The notes: generated from the letters alone by a model not told the origin. A stretch of DNA of 64,000 nt from Candidatus Uhrbacteria bacterium (GCA_016187485.1 JACPJO010000005.1:7499-71498), one strand, 5' to 3'. Shown: positions 3,307 to 47,000, numbered from the stretch's first letter. Made by a program: numbers and translations.

Positions 3307-3637
3307 CTCAGCGGCAGAGCAGTGGACTGTGACCAGGATCAAGCGATCCAAATAGCAGCTTCCTGCGGAGACGCAGGAATGAAAAGAGGGTGAACTGCTG
3401 GAAGCCGTCGCGTAAGACCAGCTAAGCTGGCCGAGCACGGTAATCAGCAGCCAAGCCCGCCGCATAGCTGAGGCAATGCAGGCGGGAAGGTTCAGAGACT
3501 ATCCGCAAGGAGTACTCCGACGATGTCGGAGGAAGCGCCCTCCGTCCTTCGGGACGATGATATAGTCCACCCCTTAAGGAAACTTAAGGATACGTGTAAT
3601 CCATTGGTCGTGGGTTCGATCCCCACCCCCGGAGCCA
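3297..3637 (+). tRNA. tRNA-Asn(GUU) interrupted by a group I intron in the anticodon loop (exon 1 3297-3330, exon 2 3597-3637 including encoded CCA)
   Basis: Joining the exons gives UCCGGGGUAGCUCAGCGGCAGAGCAGUGGACUGUUAAUCCAUUGGUCGUGGGUUCGAUCCCCACCCCCGGAGCCA. This is a canonical cloverleaf with a 7-bp acceptor stem, D-arm GCUC/GAGC, anticodon stem GUGGA/UCCAU, loop CUGUUAA and T-arm GUGGG-UUCGAUC-CCCAC. The anticodon arm GGACUGUUAAUCC is near-identical to E. coli tRNA-Asn. Confidence 0.8.
3331..3596 (+). ncRNA. Group I self-splicing intron (266 nt, no internal ORF) inserted between anticodon positions 35 and 36 of tRNA-Asn
   Basis: Conserved group I core elements are present. P-like CUGCUGG (about 3396-3402) pairs with Q AAUCAGCAGCC (3442-3452). 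R is GGUUCAGAGACUA (3489-3501) and S is GAUGAUAUAGUCCAC (3555-3569), giving P7 AGACUA/UAGUCC. P2 is the hairpin CUUCCUGCG-GAGA-CGCAGGAA, and P9 is the hairpin CCUUAAG-GAAA-CUUAAGG. The 5' exon ends in U (3330) and the intron ends in G (3596). A candidate P1 pairs exon CUGU with intron GCAG (3355-3358). Confidence 0.75.
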
Positions 3638-21708: not shown

Positions 21709-22626
21709 TTGGCGTATGCGCACACGTTTTGCCTTTGTCCTCTGTCTTATCCTCCTGCTTGTTGTGCTTTACGTTTTTGCAGGGACCCGACTGTGAGCAT
21801 TTGTTACCGATCCAATGCGGATTTTCTCCGGCGAGATATAGGGGAGGGGGGGCGTTTTTATTTTGTGGGAACAGAGGAGGCGCCGGGAGTCCGCGCGGCT
21901 TTTGGTCCCATTGTGCGTGAGGAGTACGAGGGAGATAACGAACCAATGATCGAGGAAGGTCCATTTCGTCCTATTTCATGGAGGACGCATATGCATGCGA
22001 GGGTTCCTGCCGGGTGGCGAAAAGGGCGCATCGCTCCCATTATCCGCCGGCACGGTTTTGTGGATGTGCAAGAAGTGGGAGACTGCCGTGACCGATATTG
22101 GAGTGCGCAGGCGAAGCGCCATGAGCGAGCGTGGATGAAAGAGCAGAGGGAATGGCAGATGGTCGAGCCGACCCTTGAAGAGTTTATTGCCGGCATGCGT
22201 GCGACGGATAAAGATATACTTTTCAAAGCGATGTTTATTGATTCGCTTCGGCGGATCGCACGTGGACATGGGGGTTTGCTTCACCTTCGGGCGCTCCGGC
22301 GCGCAGACGGGCCCCTTGAGGTTGGGCTTGCGACGGTGGATGTTCCCGAATGCCGCCTCTCCTTCCACCACATTGCCTTCACGCTTCCAAGCGCACGCGC
22401 ATCTTCAGCGGGCACCGGGCTTATTATGGAGTGGTTTGACCGCGCAATGGCCCAGAAACTCCACGCTCTTCACTTCGGTGTTTTCTGGGCGCCTGGTTCG
22501 CCAAAAGATTGGAAAGGATTTTCTCGATTCAAGGCACAGTTCGGTGTGCAGATGATGGATTTACCGCATCCACTCGTGCGTTGGGCGGGGCGCATGCGAG
22601 AAAACATTCAACGTTTGTATGTCTGA
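21709..22626 (+). CDS. FemAB-like/GNAT-fold (Acetyltransf_6-like) protein, paralog 1 (tentative)
   Basis: Paralogous to the next ORF over about 250 aa (e.g. YFVGTEEAPG / YQFVGRPGAYG, and LEVGLATVDVPE / LEAGLGVFDVPE). The pattern G-x-G-L-x-x-W-F...L-x-F-D-F-G resembles FemAB/BioF2-like GNATs. The N-terminal 28 aa look non-proteinaceous, and a GTG at 21793 is an alternative start. Confidence 0.4.
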   Translation: MAYAHTFCLCPLSYPPACCALRFCRDPTVSICYRSNADFLRRDIGEGGRFYFVGTEEAPGVRAAFGPIVREEYEGDNEPMIEEGPFRPISWRTHMHARVPAGWRKGRIAPIIRRHGFVDVQEVGDCRDRYWSAQAKRHERAWMKEQREWQMVEPTLEEFIAGMRATDKDILFKAMFIDSLRRIARGHGGLLHLRALRRADGPLEVGLATVDVPECRLSFHHIAFTLPSARASSAGTGLIMEWFDRAMAQKLHALHFGVFWAPGSPKDWKGFSRFKAQFGVQMMDLPHPLVRWAGRMRENIQRLYV

Positions 22627-23488
22627 CCACCTATGGTACGAGGGGGAGTTGGGAAAAACTATTTGTGTGGGGGCGGCGCTTCCAGATGGTTATAGGCGAT
22701 ATACACAGAGCGAGGCATACATACGGCGGGAGTGTACCGCGAAAAAGCATTATCAATTTGTCGGACGGCCGGGGGCTTATGGAGCTCGGTGGCGGTACGG
22801 GCCTGTGGCATTTGAAAAATATGTCGCGGATGAGGAACCGTACATAGAACGGCGAGGCTGGCCGCGCAAAATCATTTGGCAGAGAATATGTTCCAACGAG
22901 CAGCCAAGCGGGTGGAAGCTATCAGAAACGTGGACAGTTCCTCGACTCACGGGGTTTGTCGAACTTGATTCTGGGGACATGACGAGAACATGGAGCGCGC
23001 ACGCCCGCCGGCATCTCAAAACTTTTCACGCGGCCAGTACCTGGCGTCTTGAGCCGGTCACGTACGCAGAGTTTCTTCATTCGTATCGCAAAACGGATAA
23101 GCCGTACTTCATCAAGCGTCTTTTCACACACGTGCTTCGCGAGAAGATTCAAGCGCACGGCGTGCACGTGCGCCTGTTCGGAGCTCGACTTGACCGTCCA
23201 GGTGCTCCGCTTGAGGCAGGGCTCGGTGTCTTTGATGTTCCAGAGATCGGGCAATCCGTGCACCTCCTTTCGTTCATCCATCCGCGGGCGAAAATGGATT
23301 CCGTCGGTTTTGGCCTCATGGAGCGCTGGTTTTTAGAATCTCTCAACAAATCCATGAAGTTCTTGGACTTCGACACGTTTTGGGCCCCAAAAGATCCTGT
23401 CATGTGGCGCGGGTTTTCAGCCTTTAAGTCCCAGTTCGGGACACGGTTCATCCTCCACCCCCCTGCCCTTACTCGCTGGTCCTTCTAG
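22619..23488 (+). CDS. FemAB-like/GNAT-fold protein, paralog 2 (tentative)
   Basis: ATGTCTGA start/stop overlap with paralog 1, implying translational coupling. The family pattern GFGLMERWFLESLNKSMKFLDFDTFW is present. Confidence 0.4.
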   Translation: MSDHLWYEGELGKTICVGAALPDGYRRYTQSEAYIRRECTAKKHYQFVGRPGAYGARWRYGPVAFEKYVADEEPYIERRGWPRKIIWQRICSNEQPSGWKLSETWTVPRLTGFVELDSGDMTRTWSAHARRHLKTFHAASTWRLEPVTYAEFLHSYRKTDKPYFIKRLFTHVLREKIQAHGVHVRLFGARLDRPGAPLEAGLGVFDVPEIGQSVHLLSFIHPRAKMDSVGFGLMERWFLESLNKSMKFLDFDTFWAPKDPVMWRGFSAFKSQFGTRFILHPPALTRWSF

Positions 23489-23638
23489 GGGTCAGACCCC
23501 GGCGGGCTTGCAATTTTTAGGGATTTGTGATACTCTCCTTCCAAGTCTGTGACAGTTCCCTTGGCTAGCAAGTGCGTAACTTGAGTTAAGTGCGAGCAGG
23601 AAAGGTCGTGCACGGGCATTATTCAGTGAAATTTTCTT

Positions 23639-33633: not shown

Positions 33634-34515
33634 ATGTCATCTCCTATCTTTACACGCAATGCGTTTTTGCATTTGCTTGCGTTCATCAGTTTTTATTGGG
33701 CTGTCGTGGGGCTTATCACGCTCTACTTCCAAATTGTCAACGCGCTCTTTCCGGACCCGCTTATCTATCAAGACATGACATTTGGCGCCATGCGGTGGGG
33801 GATTTCTTCGGTGGTTATTGCGTTCCCTGTTTTTGTCGTGACGATGCGGTTCATTCGGAGCCAGGGCATTATTCGACCGCATTTCCCCATATACTTCACG
33901 CTTTTTGTGACGGGTGTCACGGCCATGATTGATTTAGCTACGCTTGTATATCACCTCACCGGTGGGGATCTCACAACGCGGTTTATTTTGAAAGCACTGG
34001 CTGTGCTCGTGGTTGCCGGTTCCGTGTTTGCTTACGAATGGTGGCACTTGAAACATGACGCGCTTCACCCGTCCAAACGCGCACGCTTCATGTTTATCCT
34101 CGTCTATATTTTACTCGCGCTTTCTGTGGTTGACGCATTTTGGGTGATTGGTTTACCAAACGTGCGGCGGTCACAGTCGCTTGATGAACGGCGCGTAAAC
34201 GATCTTCGCTCTTTGCAATGGGAGGTGCTTTCTCTCTACCAACGGGATGGCGAACTTCCTGAAACGCTTGATATGCTTGTGCGCGATCCGGGCACCAGTG
34301 CTGCCTATGAGTATCGGCCACTCGACCTTGCGTCATTTGAGCTTTGTGCAACTTTTGATCGCGCTTCTACAGGAAAAGAATCGCCGCCTTATATGGGCCG
34401 ACCCATTGCGGAAACATCAGACATTTTTACCCATGGGGCCGGATACACGTGCTTTGCGCGCACGGTTGAAGCCGATCCGGCTGTAGCCAATGAAAAAATC
34501 TATCGGCTGAGGTAG
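33634..34515 (+). CDS. Membrane protein with 5-6 TM helices and a soluble C-terminal domain (hypothetical)
   Basis: Hydrophobic segments through about residue 170, then a polar C-terminus. Start chosen after the mutY stop; the track ORF begins at 33577. Confidence 0.4.
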   Translation: MSSPIFTRNAFLHLLAFISFYWAVVGLITLYFQIVNALFPDPLIYQDMTFGAMRWGISSVVIAFPVFVVTMRFIRSQGIIRPHFPIYFTLFVTGVTAMIDLATLVYHLTGGDLTTRFILKALAVLVVAGSVFAYEWWHLKHDALHPSKRARFMFILVYILLALSVVDAFWVIGLPNVRRSQSLDERRVNDLRSLQWEVLSLYQRDGELPETLDMLVRDPGTSAAYEYRPLDLASFELCATFDRASTGKESPPYMGRPIAETSDIFTHGAGYTCFARTVEADPAVANEKIYRLR

Positions 34516-34536
34516 GGGGAGAATAAGAGAGGTATA

Positions 34537-34567
34537 AAAGTCGAAAGCGACCCCGTGGGGTCGCTAG
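34537..34567 (-). terminator. Rho-independent terminator of the 519-aa GC-rich gene; copy 1 of a 31-nt element repeated in inverted orientation at 46746-46776
   Basis: On the minus strand the transcript reads AGCGACCCC-ACG-GGGGTCGCT followed by UUCGACUUUUAU. It is identical over 31 nt to the hairpin after the 45233..46723 gene. Confidence 0.6.
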
Positions 34568-34614
34568 GTCCTCCTTCGCCTTGATGGGCTACGGAGGATG
34601 GAGAGAAGGAACGT

Positions 34615-36174
34615 TCAGTCGTTGGGATCCGTGAGCTTGCGCACCCGCATAGCGTGGGTGTCGAACGTGCAGGGCGCGTCCGCGAGCGGGTAGAAGCGCC
34701 AGCAGTCGCGCGCGACGGGCGGCGTATCGCGCGGGGGGAAGCCCGGCACGAGCACGTCGGTCCGCGCGGCGAGGAGCTGGCGGTCGATCTGGTCCTGGGG
34801 CCACTCGAGTTCGTAGCGGAGCGTCTGTCCGCTCTGCACGACCGTGGCCGTGTAGAGCTCTCGGTGCTTCGTGCGGCTGAAGCCATCGTAGGTGGGCTTC
34901 ACGAACTGCCAGCCGCACTCGATGACGCGCGACTGCAGGGCCTCGTAGAACCATGCCTGGCGCACGATGCTCTCGCGCGGCACGGTCTTGGTGCCCTCGT
35001 CTTCGCGCCCCTTCTGTGGCCTCACGGACTTGACGTAGCCGGTGCCCCCTTCCTCCATCTCGGCGGCCAGGATGTGGCGGTACAGGTAGGGGGCGTTCTC
35101 CGGCGTGAGGCGCCGGAGGAGGTTGCCGAGCAGCTGCTCGCACTCCCGTCCCCACGTGTTCCTGTGCATGTCGAGCAGCAGGTGGGTGGCGATCGTGTAG
35201 GACGAGTCGCACGCGGGCAGCGCGCGCAGGATGTCGTAGCGCACGCCGATCGGGAGGGCGCGGAGGCTCTCCGTGTCGACGTGCTTCGCCGTCATGTTCG
35301 GCTGCGACAGCGCACTCGTCGTCGCCTCGATCATGGGCAGGGCCCAGTCGAAGCCGACCCGGGCGAGCGCCATGAGCTCCTTGATGCCCTTGTTGTAGAA
35401 CGCGTTGTGGGGCGGAGGTGGCGGGTTGCCGGCCTGGAGGTGCGCCGCGAATGCCGTAGCGAGCCACCACCGGTGAACGAACGCCAGCGGAGCCCGCCGT
35501 GCGCACTCCGTGACCATCTTGCGGAAGTCGTTCACGTCCTCGAAGCAGGGCCAGAGGGAGGCGGCCCATCCATCGGAGGAGTCGAGGAACTTCCCGGCGA
35601 ACGAGCCATCCGTGTTCGTCGTGATGAGCTCCCACACGATCTCGCGCATCATCTGCTTGCCGTCCCGGTGGGTCAGGATCACGTCCGTGAGCCACGTCGG
35701 GTCGTGGGAGCGGCGGAGGATGTGCGTCCGCGCCGTCTCCACGCGCTCCTCGATCGGGAGCCAGGCGAAGAGGATCGGCAGCTCCTGCACGATCTCCGTC
35801 ATCTGGGTCCACGACGTGTCCGTCGTGAGAACCCGTGCGAGTGCCGCACGGTCTGCCTCGGGCAGGATCGTTCCGAGGTGCTCCAGACTCTGCAGGACCC
35901 AGCAGAGCCCGTGGGCCTGCGTGATGTCCTCGGGGAGGTTGCACTCGCGGTCGCGCTCGATCGCGGTCAGGATGTCCGCCAGCTTGAGCGTCCCCGTCTC
36001 GTCGCGAACCGTGAGGTCGGGGTGCAGCATGAAGCGCGCCTGGCGCGTCTTCTGTGCCTTCTTCTCCTTGATGGCCTTGTCGCGGGCCTGCTGGTACTCG
36101 AGGAAGCTGAACCCGCGATTTTCGAGATCCTTCCGGATTTCCTGCATCTCCTCACTGTTGAGCTCGATGTCCAT
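34615..36174 (-). CDS. Large hypothetical protein (519 aa) encoded in a GC-rich (foreign-looking) block
   Basis: Long ORF with balanced, protein-like composition. The overlapping long ORFs in other frames are Arg/Pro/Ala-rich high-GC artefacts. I recognise no catalytic motif. Confidence 0.55.
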   Translation of the reverse strand: MDIELNSEEMQEIRKDLENRGFSFLEYQQARDKAIKEKKAQKTRQARFMLHPDLTVRDETGTLKLADILTAIERDRECNLPEDITQAHGLCWVLQSLEHLGTILPEADRAALARVLTTDTSWTQMTEIVQELPILFAWLPIEERVETARTHILRRSHDPTWLTDVILTHRDGKQMMREIVWELITTNTDGSFAGKFLDSSDGWAASLWPCFEDVNDFRKMVTECARRAPLAFVHRWWLATAFAAHLQAGNPPPPPHNAFYNKGIKELMALARVGFDWALPMIEATTSALSQPNMTAKHVDTESLRALPIGVRYDILRALPACDSSYTIATHLLLDMHRNTWGRECEQLLGNLLRRLTPENAPYLYRHILAAEMEEGGTGYVKSVRPQKGREDEGTKTVPRESIVRQAWFYEALQSRVIECGWQFVKPTYDGFSRTKHRELYTATVVQSGQTLRYELEWPQDQIDRQLLAARTDVLVPGFPPRDTPPVARDCWRFYPLADAPCTFDTHAMRVRKLTDPND

Positions 36175-36196
36175 GGTCGGTCTGCCTTTCTGGTGC

Positions 36197-36252
36197 GAAA
36201 TGCACCTTTCAAGGCAGGGCCACCATCGGCCCTACCTTGAAAGGTGCATTTC
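36197..36252. promoter_or_regulatory. 56-nt near-perfect palindrome (25-bp arms, 1 mismatch, 6-nt spacer) upstream of the 519-aa gene
   Basis: GAAATGCACCTTTCAAGGCAGGGCC-ACCATC-GGCCCTACCTTGAAAGGTGCATTTC. No U-tract follows on either strand, so this is not a terminator. It lies in the divergent region between gene 34615..36174 and xth. Confidence 0.5.
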
Positions 36253-36443
36253 ACGCCTTCAGGGGGCCGACGTCCTACAATTTTACGGTGGACGTTGGAA
36301 GTAGGATCTAACTACATAACATGGGAATGTCCTGTTTTCTCCTCGGCTTGCTTGCCGAATGGAGGTGACAGAATACCAAAAAACGGTCGAAATGTCAATA
36401 CATAATGGAAGACTCCGTCCGTGATACAATTTCTGCAATATCT

Positions 36444-43099: not shown

Positions 43100-43984
43100 A
43101 TGACTCTTTTCGATTCCCACTGCCACGTCCATTTTCGTGCTTATAAGGAGGACAGGGATGCTGTTATTAAGCGTGCAACCGAAGAGGGCGTTTTCATGCT
43201 TACCGTGGGGACGCAGGCGGATACGTCGCGTGAAGCGGTGCGTGTGGCTAACGCGCATGAAGGTGTGTGGGCGACGGTGGGGCTTCACCCCAATCACACG
43301 ACGGCACAAGAGTTTGTAGACGAGAGTGAGGAGGACACCATAGCGAAAGTCAAAACGCGCACAGAAGTTTTTGACGCGGAAATGTATCGTCCGCTTGCGC
43401 AAGATCCAAAGTGCGTGGCGATTGGGGAGTGCGGACTCGACTTTTATCGCATCCCCGAACATCTTGATCGAACGGACGTCATACGAACGCAAGAAGAGAT
43501 GCTGCGGCGGCAGTTTGATTTGGCGACCGAACTTGGGAAGCCCGTGGTCATCCATTGCCGCGACGCGCACAAAGAACAGGCAGATATAATTGAAGAGTAT
43601 GTCAAAAAGGGAAAGCTGGGTGCGCGGGGTGTGATCCATTGTTTTACGGGTACGAAGGAAGATGCCCTTCGGTATCTTGCGCTTGGGTTTTATATTTCGT
43701 TTTCGGGGGTCGTGACGTTTCCGCCACGTAAAGAGGGGTCTGACCCCTCCGGGGGTCAGACCCCTCTTGCGCCGCTTGCGCTTGTGGCGCGTGATATTCC
43801 GGAGAATCGAATTCTCATCGAAACTGACGCCCCCTATTTAGCGCCTATTCCCATGCGGGGTAAGCGCAATGAGCCGGCGTATGTGCGTCATACAGCAGAA
43901 TTTTTGGCAAAGTTGCGTGGAGTGACTTTGGAGGAGTTTGCAAAGGTGACAACAGAGAACACGAGGAGAGTATTTGGCATTTGA
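43100..43984 (+). CDS. tatD: TatD-family metal-dependent DNase/hydrolase, carrying an in-frame palindromic insertion
   Basis: N-terminal FDSHCHVHF and internal IETDAPYLAP motifs. A 38-nt perfect palindrome (43731-43768) encodes an extra KEGSDPSGGQTPL loop. Confidence 0.85.
   Translation: MTLFDSHCHVHFRAYKEDRDAVIKRATEEGVFMLTVGTQADTSREAVRVANAHEGVWATVGLHPNHTTAQEFVDESEEDTIAKVKTRTEVFDAEMYRPLAQDPKCVAIGECGLDFYRIPEHLDRTDVIRTQEEMLRRQFDLATELGKPVVIHCRDAHKEQADIIEEYVKKGKLGARGVIHCFTGTKEDALRYLALGFYISFSGVVTFPPRKEGSDPSGGQTPLAPLALVARDIPENRILIETDAPYLAPIPMRGKRNEPAYVRHTAEFLAKLRGVTLEEFAKVTTENTRRVFGI
43731..43768. repeat. Perfect 38-nt palindrome made of two GGGGTC(T/A)GACCCC units, inserted in-frame in tatD
   Basis: AAGAGGGGTCTGACCCC-TCCG-GGGGTCAGACCCCTCTT. 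The same 13-mer GGGGTCAGACCCC recurs at 23488-23500, and a related GGGTC-N3-GACCC motif occurs at 3004-3021. Confidence 0.7.
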
Positions 43985-44030
43985 AATTCGAAAGCCAGGC
44001 ACGAGGCCTGGCTAGGAAGAAAAGAACGAA

Positions 44031-45104
44031 CTAGAGCTTGTGGCCGAGGCGGCGCATGGTGGCGTGGATGTCGCTCACCACGAGCACGGCGTCGGCACGC
44101 GTGAGGTGCCACACGCGCTCGCCGTCCCAGTGGCGAAGTGGTCGCCGGATTGCCGAATCCTCGTTGAGTAGATCGGTGTAGAGTGCGCGCAGTCGGGGCT
44201 CGGACTTCTCTCCCTCGAATCGCTTGATGCGCAGTTTGAGGCGCCGAGCGAGCTCCGCCGACATCTCCTCGCGACTCTTCCGTGCCGCGACGAGCCGGAG
44301 GCTCGTATACACGCCGTCGTCTCGTCCCTGCTCCCACGCTGCGATGAGCTCCGGTTCCGGACTCACGCGGATGTAGTTGGCGGGGAGCGTGCGCGGCGGC
44401 GGTTGGGCGGCCTCGGTGCGCGGTGTGGCCTCTGCCGAAGGCGGTTCTGCCGCCTGCCGCTGCGCCTGCTCAATGTCCGCCGCCGTGACACCGCTTCCCG
44501 CCTGCACGACTTGTGCGCGCAGGCGCTCTTCGCGAATGCGCGCCCGGGAGCTTTCCGCCGCCGCCGTCTCTTCCGCCGTCTTCACGAGCTCCATCTTCTG
44601 CGTTCTAGCGTAGGCGGTGAAGCCATCGCGCACAGAGGAGTTCCAGAAGGCGCTGTCGTCGGGCCAGTCGGGCGCATCGTTGGGGGACGTGTAGCCGAGT
44701 TGTCGCGCCATCGCGATCACCTCGTCGTACTGATCGTCTCCCTCGGGCGCGATCTGCATCGGCTCGTCGGGGTTGCGGGAGGAACTGTGTCGGTACTTGT
44801 CGAGCGCCTTGAGTCCGTAGTAGATCGCCTCGCGCAGACTCTCGTCCACGCCGACCTTTTCGAGCAAGGTCTTCCATTGCTCGAGCGCGCCAGGCTTCTC
44901 CACGCTCTTCGTGAAGGTCCCCCGAGGGAGGAACCTCACGGCGCCCTCGACGAACGGGGCGAATTCGTAGCTGCCGTCCTTCTCTCGGTCTACGTAGTTG
45001 TTCCCCCCCTCCATCTGACGTGCGTCGGCGAAGGGGAGGGCGACGAGGTCCAGGTACTCCTGAGGATTCAGTTCAGAAAGGCTGATAGCCATGGGGTACT
45101 CCAC
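44031..45104 (-). CDS. Hypothetical protein (357 aa) in a GC-rich foreign block
   Basis: Long ORF with normal composition, a central Ala/Glu/Gln/Pro-rich linker and a charged C-terminal domain. Divergent from the 45233 gene. Confidence 0.5.
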   Translation of the reverse strand: MEYPMAISLSELNPQEYLDLVALPFADARQMEGGNNYVDREKDGSYEFAPFVEGAVRFLPRGTFTKSVEKPGALEQWKTLLEKVGVDESLREAIYYGLKALDKYRHSSSRNPDEPMQIAPEGDDQYDEVIAMARQLGYTSPNDAPDWPDDSAFWNSSVRDGFTAYARTQKMELVKTAEETAAAESSRARIREERLRAQVVQAGSGVTAADIEQAQRQAAEPPSAEATPRTEAAQPPPRTLPANYIRVSPEPELIAAWEQGRDDGVYTSLRLVAARKSREEMSAELARRLKLRIKRFEGEKSEPRLRALYTDLLNEDSAIRRPLRHWDGERVWHLTRADAVLVVSDIHATMRRLGHKL

Positions 45105-45158
45105 TTCGTATAGGTTAGGAAAAGGCCGAAACGCCTCAACTTAGCAAAAAAACCTGTC

Positions 45159-45178
45159 GCTGTCAATGCGTTGACAGC
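45159..45178. promoter_or_regulatory. Palindromic operator candidate overlapping a TTGACA -35 box between divergent GC-rich genes
   Basis: GCTGTCAA-TGCG-TTGACAGC is a perfect 8-bp inverted repeat. A CTGTCG/CTGTCA direct repeat lies immediately upstream. Confidence 0.45.
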
Positions 45179-45232
45179 AGCAGACTTTTCTGCTAGGTTA
45201 AGCCCTTAGTTTGCGGCGATCCTGCCGCGAGC

Positions 45233-46723
45233 TTGGGCCGTCCAAAGACGGACGGCAAGTTCCTTGCAAGATGTTGGGCAATCCCGCCCTGTGTACGGCG
45301 CCGTGTGGCGCAGAAAGTGAGAGAGGCCATGCCTCGTCCCCGTAAGGCTCTGCCTGCAGAGCTCCGGCCCGCCATTCCGGGCAAACCGGTCAATCTTCTT
45401 CCCGACAAGTACCGCCGGAACCCCCTCCAGTTCGCCCGCGAGGAGATCGACATCGCGCGCAACAAGGGGGAAGTGCCCGACAACGATGCCGCTTTCCAGA
45501 CCCAGATCATCGAGGAGGACGAACGGCGGTGGCGGTCGCGCGAGCTGCCCGCCATCGCGGGGTACGTGAACCGGATGTACGCGCGCGGAACGTTCGTGGA
45601 CCCCGACGACTTCATGATCGTCTGGGGGCTCTGGAACCAGCACACCCACAGCTTCCGGCTCTCGCACGGCGACCCGGCGGTCACGAACGTTCTCACTGCC
45701 CACAACCAGGGCATGGCCCGCCCCATCACCGATGCGTTCCGCCCCATCCACGAGAAGGCGGTTCCGGTCCCGTTGGCGCTCCTCGCCTTCGAGAAGCGGG
45801 AGATGGGCGAGGACGTCCCGGCGGGCGTCGAGACGTCGGTGTACGTCTACGTCTGCATGCCGGCCAATCTCGAGGCATCGGTGAAAGACGGAAACTTCAC
45901 CGACGACGTGAGCGTGGGCGACACCCAGGTCTACACCACGGATCGCCAGGCAGTGCACCGCCGGAAGGAGGGCAATTTCCTCTTCCGGCCGAACAGCGTG
46001 TCCAAGCACCCCCGCAAGCGCTTCGTCGCCTTCCATCCCGTCACGAAGAAGCCGATCTACCTCGCTGTGATCCCGCAGCGCTTCCTGCGCCGTGGCAAAG
46101 AGGGCGAGGAAGGCTTCCAGCCCGGGCAGCCCTGCCCGGTGGACATGGACGAGTTCGCGGACGGCTACCAGGCCCAGGTCATGGACGAAGGTGCGGTGGC
46201 CACGGACGAGCCGGCGGAAGAGGAAGTCAAGAAGATCCTCGACCGCATCGCGCACGGAGGTGCCGGCGGGCGCAAGGCCAGCAGGCAGGGCGAGTTCGAC
46301 TTCGACGGCCGCGTCTGGAACGCGCTCTCGATCCTCGGCATCAAGGAGGGTGAAGCGCCGACGGCAGAGAGCATCGGGAAGGCGCGCAGGCGCTACAGTC
46401 CGAGGCTCTTCGATGCTCGAAGCGCCATGGGCCTCCACAGCGCCCTCGTCCTGCTCGGCATGCCCGAGAGCGATCGCACCGCGTACATGAAGGACAAGCA
46501 CTTCGAGATCTTCAAAGCCGCGGTCGGTGTGGCCGAGGGGATGCTGCCGAAGGCCGAGCCGGTGGAGGAGACGGAAGGCGACAAGCCCGCCGACTCGCCA
46601 CCCGCAACAAGCGAAGCGTCCAGCGCGACGACCTCGCCCGCCGACACGACGGACGACCCCGCCATGTCCCAGCCCGCCGCGACCCGCAAGGCCCCGCGCG
46701 TGGAACCCGGCACCGACGACTGA
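45233..46723 (+). CDS. Large hypothetical protein (up to 496 aa) in a GC-rich foreign block, with acidic Ser/Thr/Pro-rich C-terminal tail
   Basis: Long ORF whose overlapping antisense ORFs show high-GC artefact composition. The true start is possibly the Met at about 45329 (MPRPRKAL). Stop TGA at 46721-46723. Confidence 0.5.
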   Translation: MGRPKTDGKFLARCWAIPPCVRRRVAQKVREAMPRPRKALPAELRPAIPGKPVNLLPDKYRRNPLQFAREEIDIARNKGEVPDNDAAFQTQIIEEDERRWRSRELPAIAGYVNRMYARGTFVDPDDFMIVWGLWNQHTHSFRLSHGDPAVTNVLTAHNQGMARPITDAFRPIHEKAVPVPLALLAFEKREMGEDVPAGVETSVYVYVCMPANLEASVKDGNFTDDVSVGDTQVYTTDRQAVHRRKEGNFLFRPNSVSKHPRKRFVAFHPVTKKPIYLAVIPQRFLRRGKEGEEGFQPGQPCPVDMDEFADGYQAQVMDEGAVATDEPAEEEVKKILDRIAHGGAGGRKASRQGEFDFDGRVWNALSILGIKEGEAPTAESIGKARRRYSPRLFDARSAMGLHSALVLLGMPESDRTAYMKDKHFEIFKAAVGVAEGMLPKAEPVEETEGDKPADSPPATSEASSATTSPADTTDDPAMSQPAATRKAPRVEPGTDD

Positions 46724-46745
46724 CAGACCAATTCGTTCTTTCTCT

Positions 46746-46776
46746 CTAGCGACCCCACGGGGTCGCTTTCGACTTT
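46746..46776 (+). terminator. Rho-independent terminator; copy 2 (inverted) of the 31-nt element at 34537-34567
   Basis: AGCGACCCC-ACG-GGGGTCGCT followed by TTCGACTTTTTTG. Starts 23 nt after the stop of gene 45233..46723. Confidence 0.65.
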
Positions 46777-47000
46777 TTTGTATCTTTCCTTTATTCCCCC
46801 TCGAAGGTATGTAAGGATAATCTAAGGCGTGTCGCAAGGACGGGGCCCCCATAACCCCGCAGCCCAGCTCAGCTGGGCGCAGCGAGTCATCGAGCGAGGA
46901 GGATGGGGTGGACGTAGCGGTTACACGCCGTCTTGTTACCTGTTCAAAACTTCCCTTGACCTTTAGTGTCTTTCCCTATATACTTTCGGCGCTTTTCGAT

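Follow-up and report, generated by a model that had tools for sequence, protein, structure and literature searches.

A 30-nucleotide hairpin element in the tatD gene of a Candidatus Uhrbacteria bacterium: probable in-frame copy of a REP-like repeat whose 13-nucleotide palindrome recurs across bacterial phyla

Repetitive extragenic palindromic sequences (REPs) are GC-rich palindromes of 20-40 nt, mostly lying just 3' of genes and often arranged as inverted dimers, some of which are found in frame in loops or linkers of proteins; intragenic REPs bearing a GTAG or CGTC tag have been described, with helicase, repair and tRNA-synthetase genes prominent among their hosts (Di Nocera et al., 2013; PMC3733652). 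Rickettsia palindromic elements (RPEs) are also documented within genes (PMC10969869). The present analysis deals with a stretch of 64,000 nt, hereafter the window, from Candidatus Uhrbacteria bacterium (GCA_016187485.1, JACPJO010000005.1:7499-71498), where the tatD gene (43100-43984, plus strand) harbours a hairpin-forming element of 30 nt (43735-43764), which is probably one copy, located within a gene, of a GC-rich and very short repeat of the REP type or of the REPIN type (REP doublet forming a hairpin).

The host gene encodes a TatD-family metal-dependent DNase/hydrolase of 294 aa, retrieved by exact sequence look-up (MBI2485087.1, Candidatus Uhrbacteria bacterium) on a contig of 303 kb and matching Pfam PF01026 TatD_DNase with an E-value of 3.8e-78. 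The motifs of the family are kept, with H7, H9, E110, H152, H180 and D243 invariant or nearly so in the alignment, and the synteny MetRS-CvpA-TatD is common to the orthologous loci. Within this gene, positions 43731-43768 read AAGAGGGGTCTGACCCC / TCCG / GGGGTCAGACCCCTCTT, i.e. two arms of 17 nt with 100% complementarity around a 4-nt loop, making it the sole perfect inverted repeat with 17-nt arms in the 64 kb. A preliminary description, made from the sequence of the window, had reported a perfect 38-nt palindrome at this place and an intact tatD reading frame, and rightly so, as the open reading frame (ORF) 43100-43984 runs through the palindrome, which is translated as K211-E-G-S-D-P-S-G-G-Q-T-P-L223. 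The predicted folding energy of the hairpin amounts to -22.5 kcal/mol as DNA (48 nt; z = -8.2) and -59.4 kcal/mol as RNA (100 nt of context; z = -6.0), no shuffle being as low in either case.

Each arm of the hairpin contains once a 13-nt palindrome, GGGGTCWGACCCC. The first copy (43735-43747) has T at its centre and the second (43752-43764) has A, being the reverse complement of the first; the spacer TCCG between them (43748-43751, 4 nt) forms the hairpin loop. The resulting unit of 30 nt, GGGGTCTGACCCC-TCCG-GGGGTCAGACCCC, begins with the third base of the E212 codon and ends with the second of the P222 codon, i.e. 10 codons; 23 of its 30 bases are G or C and its 13-bp stem is lengthened to 17 bp by the neighbouring bases, since AAGA (43731-43734, plus strand) pairs with TCTT (43765-43768, plus strand) and brings the palindrome from 30 to 38 nt. 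Because further copies of the 30-mer have different flanks and no conservation extends beyond the 13-mers, AAGA and TCTT are read as host bases, so that the perfect 38-nt palindrome would comprise the element plus four host bases per side. The unit of 38 nt put forward in the preliminary description is consequently too long, what recurs elsewhere between unrelated flanks being the inner 30 nt (13+4+13). In the window as a whole, GGGGTCWGACCCC is present three times for 0.06 expected, and none of 100 shuffles gave three copies; the remaining one is a solo 13-mer (GGGGTCAGACCCC; 23488-23500) in an intergenic spacer, which overlaps ORF 22619-23488 by the final base of its TAG stop codon.

Regarding other structural readings of the hairpin, an internal terminator was considered and rejected, as no T-run follows the hairpin 3' and the site caller gave none there; no terminator-like site was called at the solo 13-mer (23488-23500) either. 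An Rfam scan of the window and of five motif-rich loci returned nothing relevant to the 13-mer element. Directly 3' of the palindrome, an imperfect 9-nt direct repeat, CTTGCGCCG / CTTGCGCTT, encodes L-A-P / L-A-L (43766-43783).

When positions 43735-43764 are removed, GA is rejoined to T and the codons become CGT AAA GAT CTT GCG (R-K-D-L-A), the sequence then being PPRKDLAPLALVARDIP and the reconstructed junction CGTAAAGATCTTGCGC; in other words, a single D is replaced by EGSDPSGGQTP in the TatD of the window. On sequence grounds, the event is best read as an insertion of 30 nt, or 10 codons, into the palindromic site AAGA^TCTT. The loop thereby restored, PPRKDLAPLALVARDIPENR, aligns without gap with the consensus D-I-S-P-L-Q-K-V-A-R-D-L-P of the orthologues and has RKDL in common with one of them (P0003). 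Because the 30-nt deletion model aligns gap-free, a tandem duplication of the 9-nt unit CTTGCGCCG/CTTGCGCTT is unnecessary, and it was rejected as part of the length gain. Mechanistically, two copies of GGGGTCWGACCCC spaced by 4 nt would have entered the codon pair GA^T CTT (K-D-L) without target-site duplication, the target being the stretch that leads from strand 7 to helix 7 in the TatD barrel, a loop already longer and variable in length in Uhrbacteria. As the unit is 30 nt long, no frame shift is possible, and of the six frames of this copy four are open, counterparts on the other strand included, specifying hydrophilic tetrapeptides bounded by Gly and Pro (GSDP, GQTP, GLTP, GVRP), the other two frames hitting GTC-TGA. 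Owing to this length and these open frames, the gene stays intact, with TatD gaining ten disordered loop residues. The element thus read presumably arrived by insertion rather than by local origin, would be selectively tolerated rather than useful to TatD, and would have spread through a mechanism recognising either the hairpin or the 13-mer, the candidates being a single-strand HUH/RAYT-like transposase (RAYT, REP-associated tyrosine transposase) and gene conversion with other copies as donors.

The position of the insert was further assessed by comparison with TatD proteins of solved structure and with orthologues. Relative to 1yix, 1j6o and 6l25, HMMER opens a gap of 13 residues exactly at GSDPSGGQTPLAP. 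Among 112 Uhrbacteria-type sequences, where the loop segment was measured from G-x-x-T-F to x-x-x-ETDAPY, 24 have the canonical type of 15 aa, 46 fall at the mode of 22-23 aa (PPRKGEGDISPLQKV...) and 37 have 25-28 aa; a segment of 30 aa is found in the species of the window only, and segments of 34, 41 and 43 aa in one sequence each. Since the orthologue segments mostly count 22-28 residues vs. 15 in the canonical type, most of the apparent insert is a clade-wide loop expansion in Uhrbacteria. The figure of about 13 extra residues given in the preliminary description thus holds against canonical TatD but not against the closest orthologues, relative to which 10 codons were gained. In the three closest orthologues inspected as DNA, the loop is coded by non-palindromic sequence, with perfect inverted repeats of 6-8 nt at the longest. 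The objection foreseen in the preliminary description, namely orthologues from unrelated taxa having a loop of equivalent length and non-palindromic coding, is half borne out; yet the REP-like reading survives, because the element recurs in other genomes and in other genes. In another orthologue (P0091, locus L148), the same loop holds four tandem 9-nt units of the form xTGACyCCT, encoding L-T-P/M-T-P/S-T-P; this unit resembles the half-core CTGACCCC and may be a decayed or slipped derivative.

The AlphaFold2 model of TatD, built with 40 orthologues, has a mean predicted local distance difference test score (pLDDT) of 92.2 and a predicted template modelling score (pTM) of 0.90, and it superimposes on 1j6o, 6l25 and 1yix with template modelling (TM) scores of 0.87-0.89, and on TatD structures altogether with 0.87-0.90, all normalised to the target, in agreement with a TIM-barrel fold. 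The insert is placed between the strand 198-201, with a short helix at 203-206, and the helix 225-232. Residues 213-216 and 218-220, all of which are inside the insert, are the only ones with a pLDDT below 50, so that the loop position proposed in the preliminary description agrees with the structural model. The insert is accordingly predicted to form a disordered loop, adjoining a PPRK motif conserved in the clade.

A second Uhrbacteria TatD (P0065, L150 301-1329, GCA_964471375.1) has another palindromic repeat, of about 55 nt, twice and each time in frame; the core of this repeat is GCGACTTTAGTCGCGTC...GACGCGACTAAAGTCGC, and its two copies agree at most of the positions aligned, with folding energies of about -36 and -49 kcal/mol in a context of 96 nt. 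The first copy lies in the first variable loop and the second immediately after R-K-S-D and before L-S-P-L, i.e. at the same D|L position as the element of the window, and GATCT is found in both empty sites. The shared D|L site can reflect a target preference or simply one tolerated spot.

Beyond the window, the twin arrangement, defined as two 13-mers 0-12 nt apart, was scanned for in a collection with one genome per species and was found at no less than 120 genome loci (at least this number) in many phyla, the copies being usually intergenic. The matches listed include isolate or complete genomes of Duganella, Rugamonas, Parapusillimonas, Halomonas, Faecalicatena, Dorea and a Lachnospiraceae strain, metagenome-assembled genomes (MAGs) of Acidobacteriota, Actinomycetota, Planctomycetota, Omnitrophota, Gemmatimonadota, Myxococcota and candidate division WWE3, and, as a further taxon, Burkholderiales. 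Among these same matches, a spacer of 4 nt, giving a unit of 30 nt, is the commonest (42 of 156 twins), and the two 13-mers are inverted in 115 twins and direct in 41. With about a quarter of the twins direct, the duplex 13-mer site would seem to matter at least as much as the long hairpin, as these proportions suggest. The complete Parapusillimonas genome has 12 bare twin units in 5 loci (eleven 30-mers and one with a 3-nt spacer), the flanks of which are unrelated and without target duplication. Over 764 flanks, no base conservation was detected outside the 13-mer; an extended consensus was therefore rejected, conservation stopping at 13 nt. The exact 30-mer of tatD, TCCG included, occurs at two further unrelated loci (L142/L143 and L144) on metagenome contigs of 67-70% GC, in both cases intergenic and past the stop codon of a neighbouring gene, by 12 nt (L143) and about 60 nt (L144); at L009, a twin lies about 11 nt after a stop codon.

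In a collection of viral contigs, the real twin was matched in 11 stretches on 6 contigs, and five composition-matched palindromic cores (CT/AG, AC/GT, TG/CA, CA/TG and AG/CT) were matched 0, 1, 0, 0 and 0 times, respectively; these controls, although a small set, argue against a chance convergence of GC-rich stems. Carriage by plasmids was considered too and rejected, two variants of the 30-mer being absent from 7.3 Gb of plasmid sequence. In the literature, searches with the 13-mer, 11-mer and 9-mer met only primers and GntR operators, and the 13-mer is absent from the REP survey PMC3733652 and its supplements. The centre of the 13-mer, GGTCWGACC, corresponds to the operator core reported for the GntR-family regulators LldR and PdhR, which is a lead only. 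Its first 10 nt equal the tip of the Tn3 terminal repeat GGGGTCTGAC, likewise no more than a lead. In Halomonas (L030 2140-4367 and L081 7789-7986), tandem arrays with a period of about 52-55 nt alternate a twin of 34-36 nt with a similar filler of about 20 nt.

As in tatD, the twin can be found inside genes, such cases being recognised by long ORFs spanning the match and by Pfam domain matches that bracket or span the motif. Confirmed by Pfam and with the twin in frame are the genes for HrpA in Ferrovum (L061), RecG (L068), a Ser/Thr kinase (L090), a MacB/FtsX permease (L083), alanyl-tRNA synthetase (AlaRS; L054), Tgt in Omnitrophota (L043), arginyl-tRNA synthetase (ArgRS) in Vicinamibacterales (L062), an AMP-binding enzyme (L019) and a DEAD helicase (L053); the junction of urease gamma and beta (L095) is also confirmed by Pfam. 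All the in-gene twins are from MAGs, and the copies of isolate genomes appeared intergenic. Many matches spanned by ORFs in GC-rich isolate genomes look by eye like spurious Arg-rich ORFs and were not counted as intragenic; Pfam gave no match for two representative ORFs, one of a MAG (L117) and one of a Rugamonas isolate (L026), the latter being the sole isolate ORF scanned. In HrpA of Ferrovum (L061 6247-6320), three 13-mers follow one another just upstream of the conserved helicase motif LTPLG. The third of them is itself translated as G-L-T-P, so that the core may be imitated or seeded by native coding sequence.

The ArgRS gene of Vicinamibacterales holds a related 38-mer, GGGGTCTGACCCCCGTAC-N-GGTACGGGGGTCAGACCCC (L062 5331-5368), which contains the same 13-mer and is translated as GSDPRTGTGVRPQ, in the linker that joins the N-terminal domain to the catalytic one; of the 40 closest ArgRS orthologues aligned, with 82-93% identity to the query, most keep this peptide. 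At the DNA level, the 38-mer is identical at 37 of 38 positions in three species (L062, L145 and L146), only the central loop base varying, for 80-93% identity over the rest of the gene (P of about 0.002-0.004 for the two pairs at 80%). A fourth orthologue (L147) has, at the same site, a different palindrome with 9-bp arms. The ArgRS hairpin may be either under direct constraint or homogenised against other genomic copies. Given such near-invariance, the perfect palindrome of TatD need not be recent.

Compared with the described systems, the tatD element resembles REPs in being short (30 nt), GC-rich and able to form a stem-loop; besides, its hosts HrpA, RecG, ArgRS, AlaRS and TatD correspond to the host spectrum of intragenic REPs, and the 13-mer twins, like REPs, are mostly intergenic near the 3' ends of genes and often inverted, the solo copy of the window overlapping a stop codon. 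REP families are nonetheless species-specific, whereas this 13-mer is identical across phyla. With RPEs, the element has in common to be a palindromic repeat translated in frame and compatible with the protein surface in unrelated housekeeping genes, here the TatD loop and ten further host genes; RPEs, however, occur in Rickettsia only and are longer, with about 100-150 bp coding for a conserved peptide of 30-50 residues, in contrast to 30 nt, 10 residues and many phyla here. The likeness to REPs and RPEs suggested in the preliminary description was therefore right in kind, as far as an in-frame short palindromic repeat in a loop is concerned. The REPIN/RAYT system shares the inverted doublet of short palindromes, the hairpin, the lack of target-site duplication and the dispersal among housekeeping genes, but REPINs usually measure 70-100 nt, REP sequences co-vary with a single-copy RAYT per genome, and 41 of the 156 twins among the matches listed are direct rather than inverted. 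Miniature inverted-repeat transposable elements, known as MITEs, are likewise short, non-autonomous, structured by inverted repeats and sometimes fused in frame; they differ in their length (50-500 bp), in terminal inverted repeats matching a parent insertion sequence and in direct target-site duplications. Around the 13-mer element, no direct repeats were seen at any copy examined, the flanks varying from copy to copy and being inverted at tatD (AAGA/TCTT).

Two other kinds of short sequence deserve comparison. The DNA uptake sequences (DUS) of Neisseria and HIP1 of cyanobacteria are each confined to one family or one phylum, with a density of roughly one per kb; like them, the 13-mer is short, sharp-edged and over-represented, forms inverted pairs 3' of genes and is tolerated in coding regions, but it is sparse in the window and spans phyla. 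Template-switch (quasi-palindrome) mutations, following the Ripley model, generate perfect hairpins in one step, possibly inside genes, and template-switch hairpins were reportedly the subject of work by Mönttinen and Löytynoja in 2022; these are locus-specific copies of adjacent sequence, whereas the 30-mer of tatD is common to unrelated genomes.

Such a template switch was considered for tatD. The loop would have already coded for K-E-G-S-D, and the nascent strand, folded back on itself, would have copied 17 nt as reverse complement, adding 21 nt (7 codons) and making a perfect palindrome in one step. This matches the 30 residues of the window segment vs. the modal 23, which is exactly 7 more, the 21 nt formed by the loop and one arm, the full complementarity of the arms, as expected from a single recent event, and the resemblance of E-G..D at the left end to G-E-G-D of the orthologues. 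Yet E-G-S-D and G-E-G-D are in register at D only, the 30-nt deletion model aligns gap-free and equally well or better, the window has one more 13-mer at a distance of 20 kb, and a template switch predicts a sequence unique to the locus, when both the twin and the very same 30-mer are met again in other, unrelated genomes and genes, far more often than the controls; the model was rejected on account of this recurrence and is very unlikely. Considering the loop simply as this lineage's version of a fast-evolving region, with palindromy arising by chance or from Gly/Pro codons, would suit the range of 15-43 residues among orthologues and the fact that E-G (GAGGGG) and P-L (CCCCTC) are reverse-complementary codon pairs; a perfect inverted repeat of 17+17 nt is nevertheless expected about 4e-5 times per 64 kb, the folding energy is unmatched by any shuffle and the recurrence of the identical unit elsewhere is left unexplained, so that absence of insertion is effectively refuted and has next to no probability left. 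Just as improbable is an artefact of assembly or sequencing, i.e. a hairpin chimera in a MAG. Metagenome assemblies are admittedly the source of the window and of every in-gene example, but the same sequence is found in the NCBI MAG and in four independent Logan runs (SRR12113383, SRR12113384, SRR12113390 and SRR12113425), the tatD frame is intact, and the twin is also present in isolate or complete genomes, namely Parapusillimonas JC17, Rugamonas rubra ATCC 43154, Faecalicatena and Dorea.

A more serious alternative, though still an unlikely one, is that of an exapted hairpin, where the structure or the 13-mer would be bound by a conserved factor, acting in mRNA processing or stability or in ribosome pausing, or where the loop next to PPRK would alter the DNA binding of TatD. 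The ArgRS 38-mer, with 37 of 38 identical positions in genes only 80-93% identical and an encoded peptide kept in most of the 40 orthologues aligned, speaks in its favour, as do the sharp boundaries of the 13-mer, invariant across phyla, and the occurrence of GGTCTGACC as core of LldR/PdhR-type GntR operators in published papers, again as a lead only. Concerted evolution with other genomic copies would, however, give the same conservation, disorder is predicted for the TatD insert, the tatD hairpin is not followed by a terminator-like tail and, elsewhere, the copies are mostly intergenic.

Several observations weigh against the REP-like insertion itself. No empty-site allele was found, the best non-self TatD being 66-67% identical and the four independent Logan assemblies all having the element; insertion is on that account inferred rather than observed. 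No transposase is linked to the twin: the nearest ORFs at 86 twin loci (124 ORFs) are ordinary housekeeping genes, for which Pfam showed no transposase family among the best 25 of the 135 matched, a lone RAYT being rarely adjacent, and a linked transposase was rejected on this basis. One twin and one solo 13-mer in 64 kb is a low number for a REP family, and the tatD element has neither the GTAG nor the CGTC tag of REPs, its flanks being AAGA and TCTT. The left arm encodes E-G-S-D, loosely like the orthologue motif G-E-G-D, so that one arm may conceivably be of local origin. Finally, the control scans were run on the viral collection, which is smaller than, and distinct from, the genome collection of the main scan.

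Other features of the window lie apart from the tatD element. A group I catalytic intron (Rfam RF00028) matches the full-length model at 3338-3589 on the plus strand, with 74.8 bits for a gathering threshold of 50 and an E-value of 3.8e-17; no tRNA or rRNA genes were detected in the window. A second long inverted repeat (36192-36257), with 30-nt arms that are 90% complementary and a 6-nt loop (GGTGCGAAATGCACCTTTCAAGGCAGGGCC / GGCCCTACCTTGAAAGGTGCATTTCACGCC), lies between genes, just upstream of where the minus-strand ORF 34615-36174 starts (ATG), and its sequence is unrelated to the tatD element. Two GC islands, 34000-36000 and 44000-47000, reach 58-64% GC vs. mostly 50-56% elsewhere, the second starting right after tatD; they may be foreign DNA. 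The large ORFs of the second island (44031-45104, minus strand; 45233-46723, plus strand) have no Pfam match, and a kinship between the two islands was rejected, ORF 34615-36174 being without significant similarity to ORF 45233-46723.

Taken as a kind of event, the tatD element is known, that is an intragenic REP-like hairpin repeat; the variant is unusual by its 30 nt, its lack of tag and its cross-phylum 13-mer, and it is apparently undescribed. That proteins can gain loop residues through palindromic repeats lying in frame is known, though seldom documented; the present case is from Patescibacteria (the candidate phyla radiation), and the 30-nt element is the smallest able to act in this way, always preserving the frame and open in four of the six frames. 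A broader proposition, which is tentative and on present evidence rather doubtful, is that GGGGTCWGACCCC could mark a pan-bacterial family of frame-neutral mini hairpins, typically of 30 nt, distributed in at least 8 phyla including Patescibacteria, located at gene ends and in loops of essential proteins, and near-invariant inside genes. If true, such a family would imply an unrecognised and widespread sequence-specific machinery, be it a transposase, a recombinase or a binding protein, or else a common cellular function of the hairpin; if it holds, a 13-mer found across phyla, far above controls and conserved beyond its coding context in ArgRS would point to an undescribed sequence-specific process or factor. 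For the enzymes of uncultivated bacteria, differences of loop length in otherwise conserved proteins may, by the same token, be repeat insertions rather than adaptive features.

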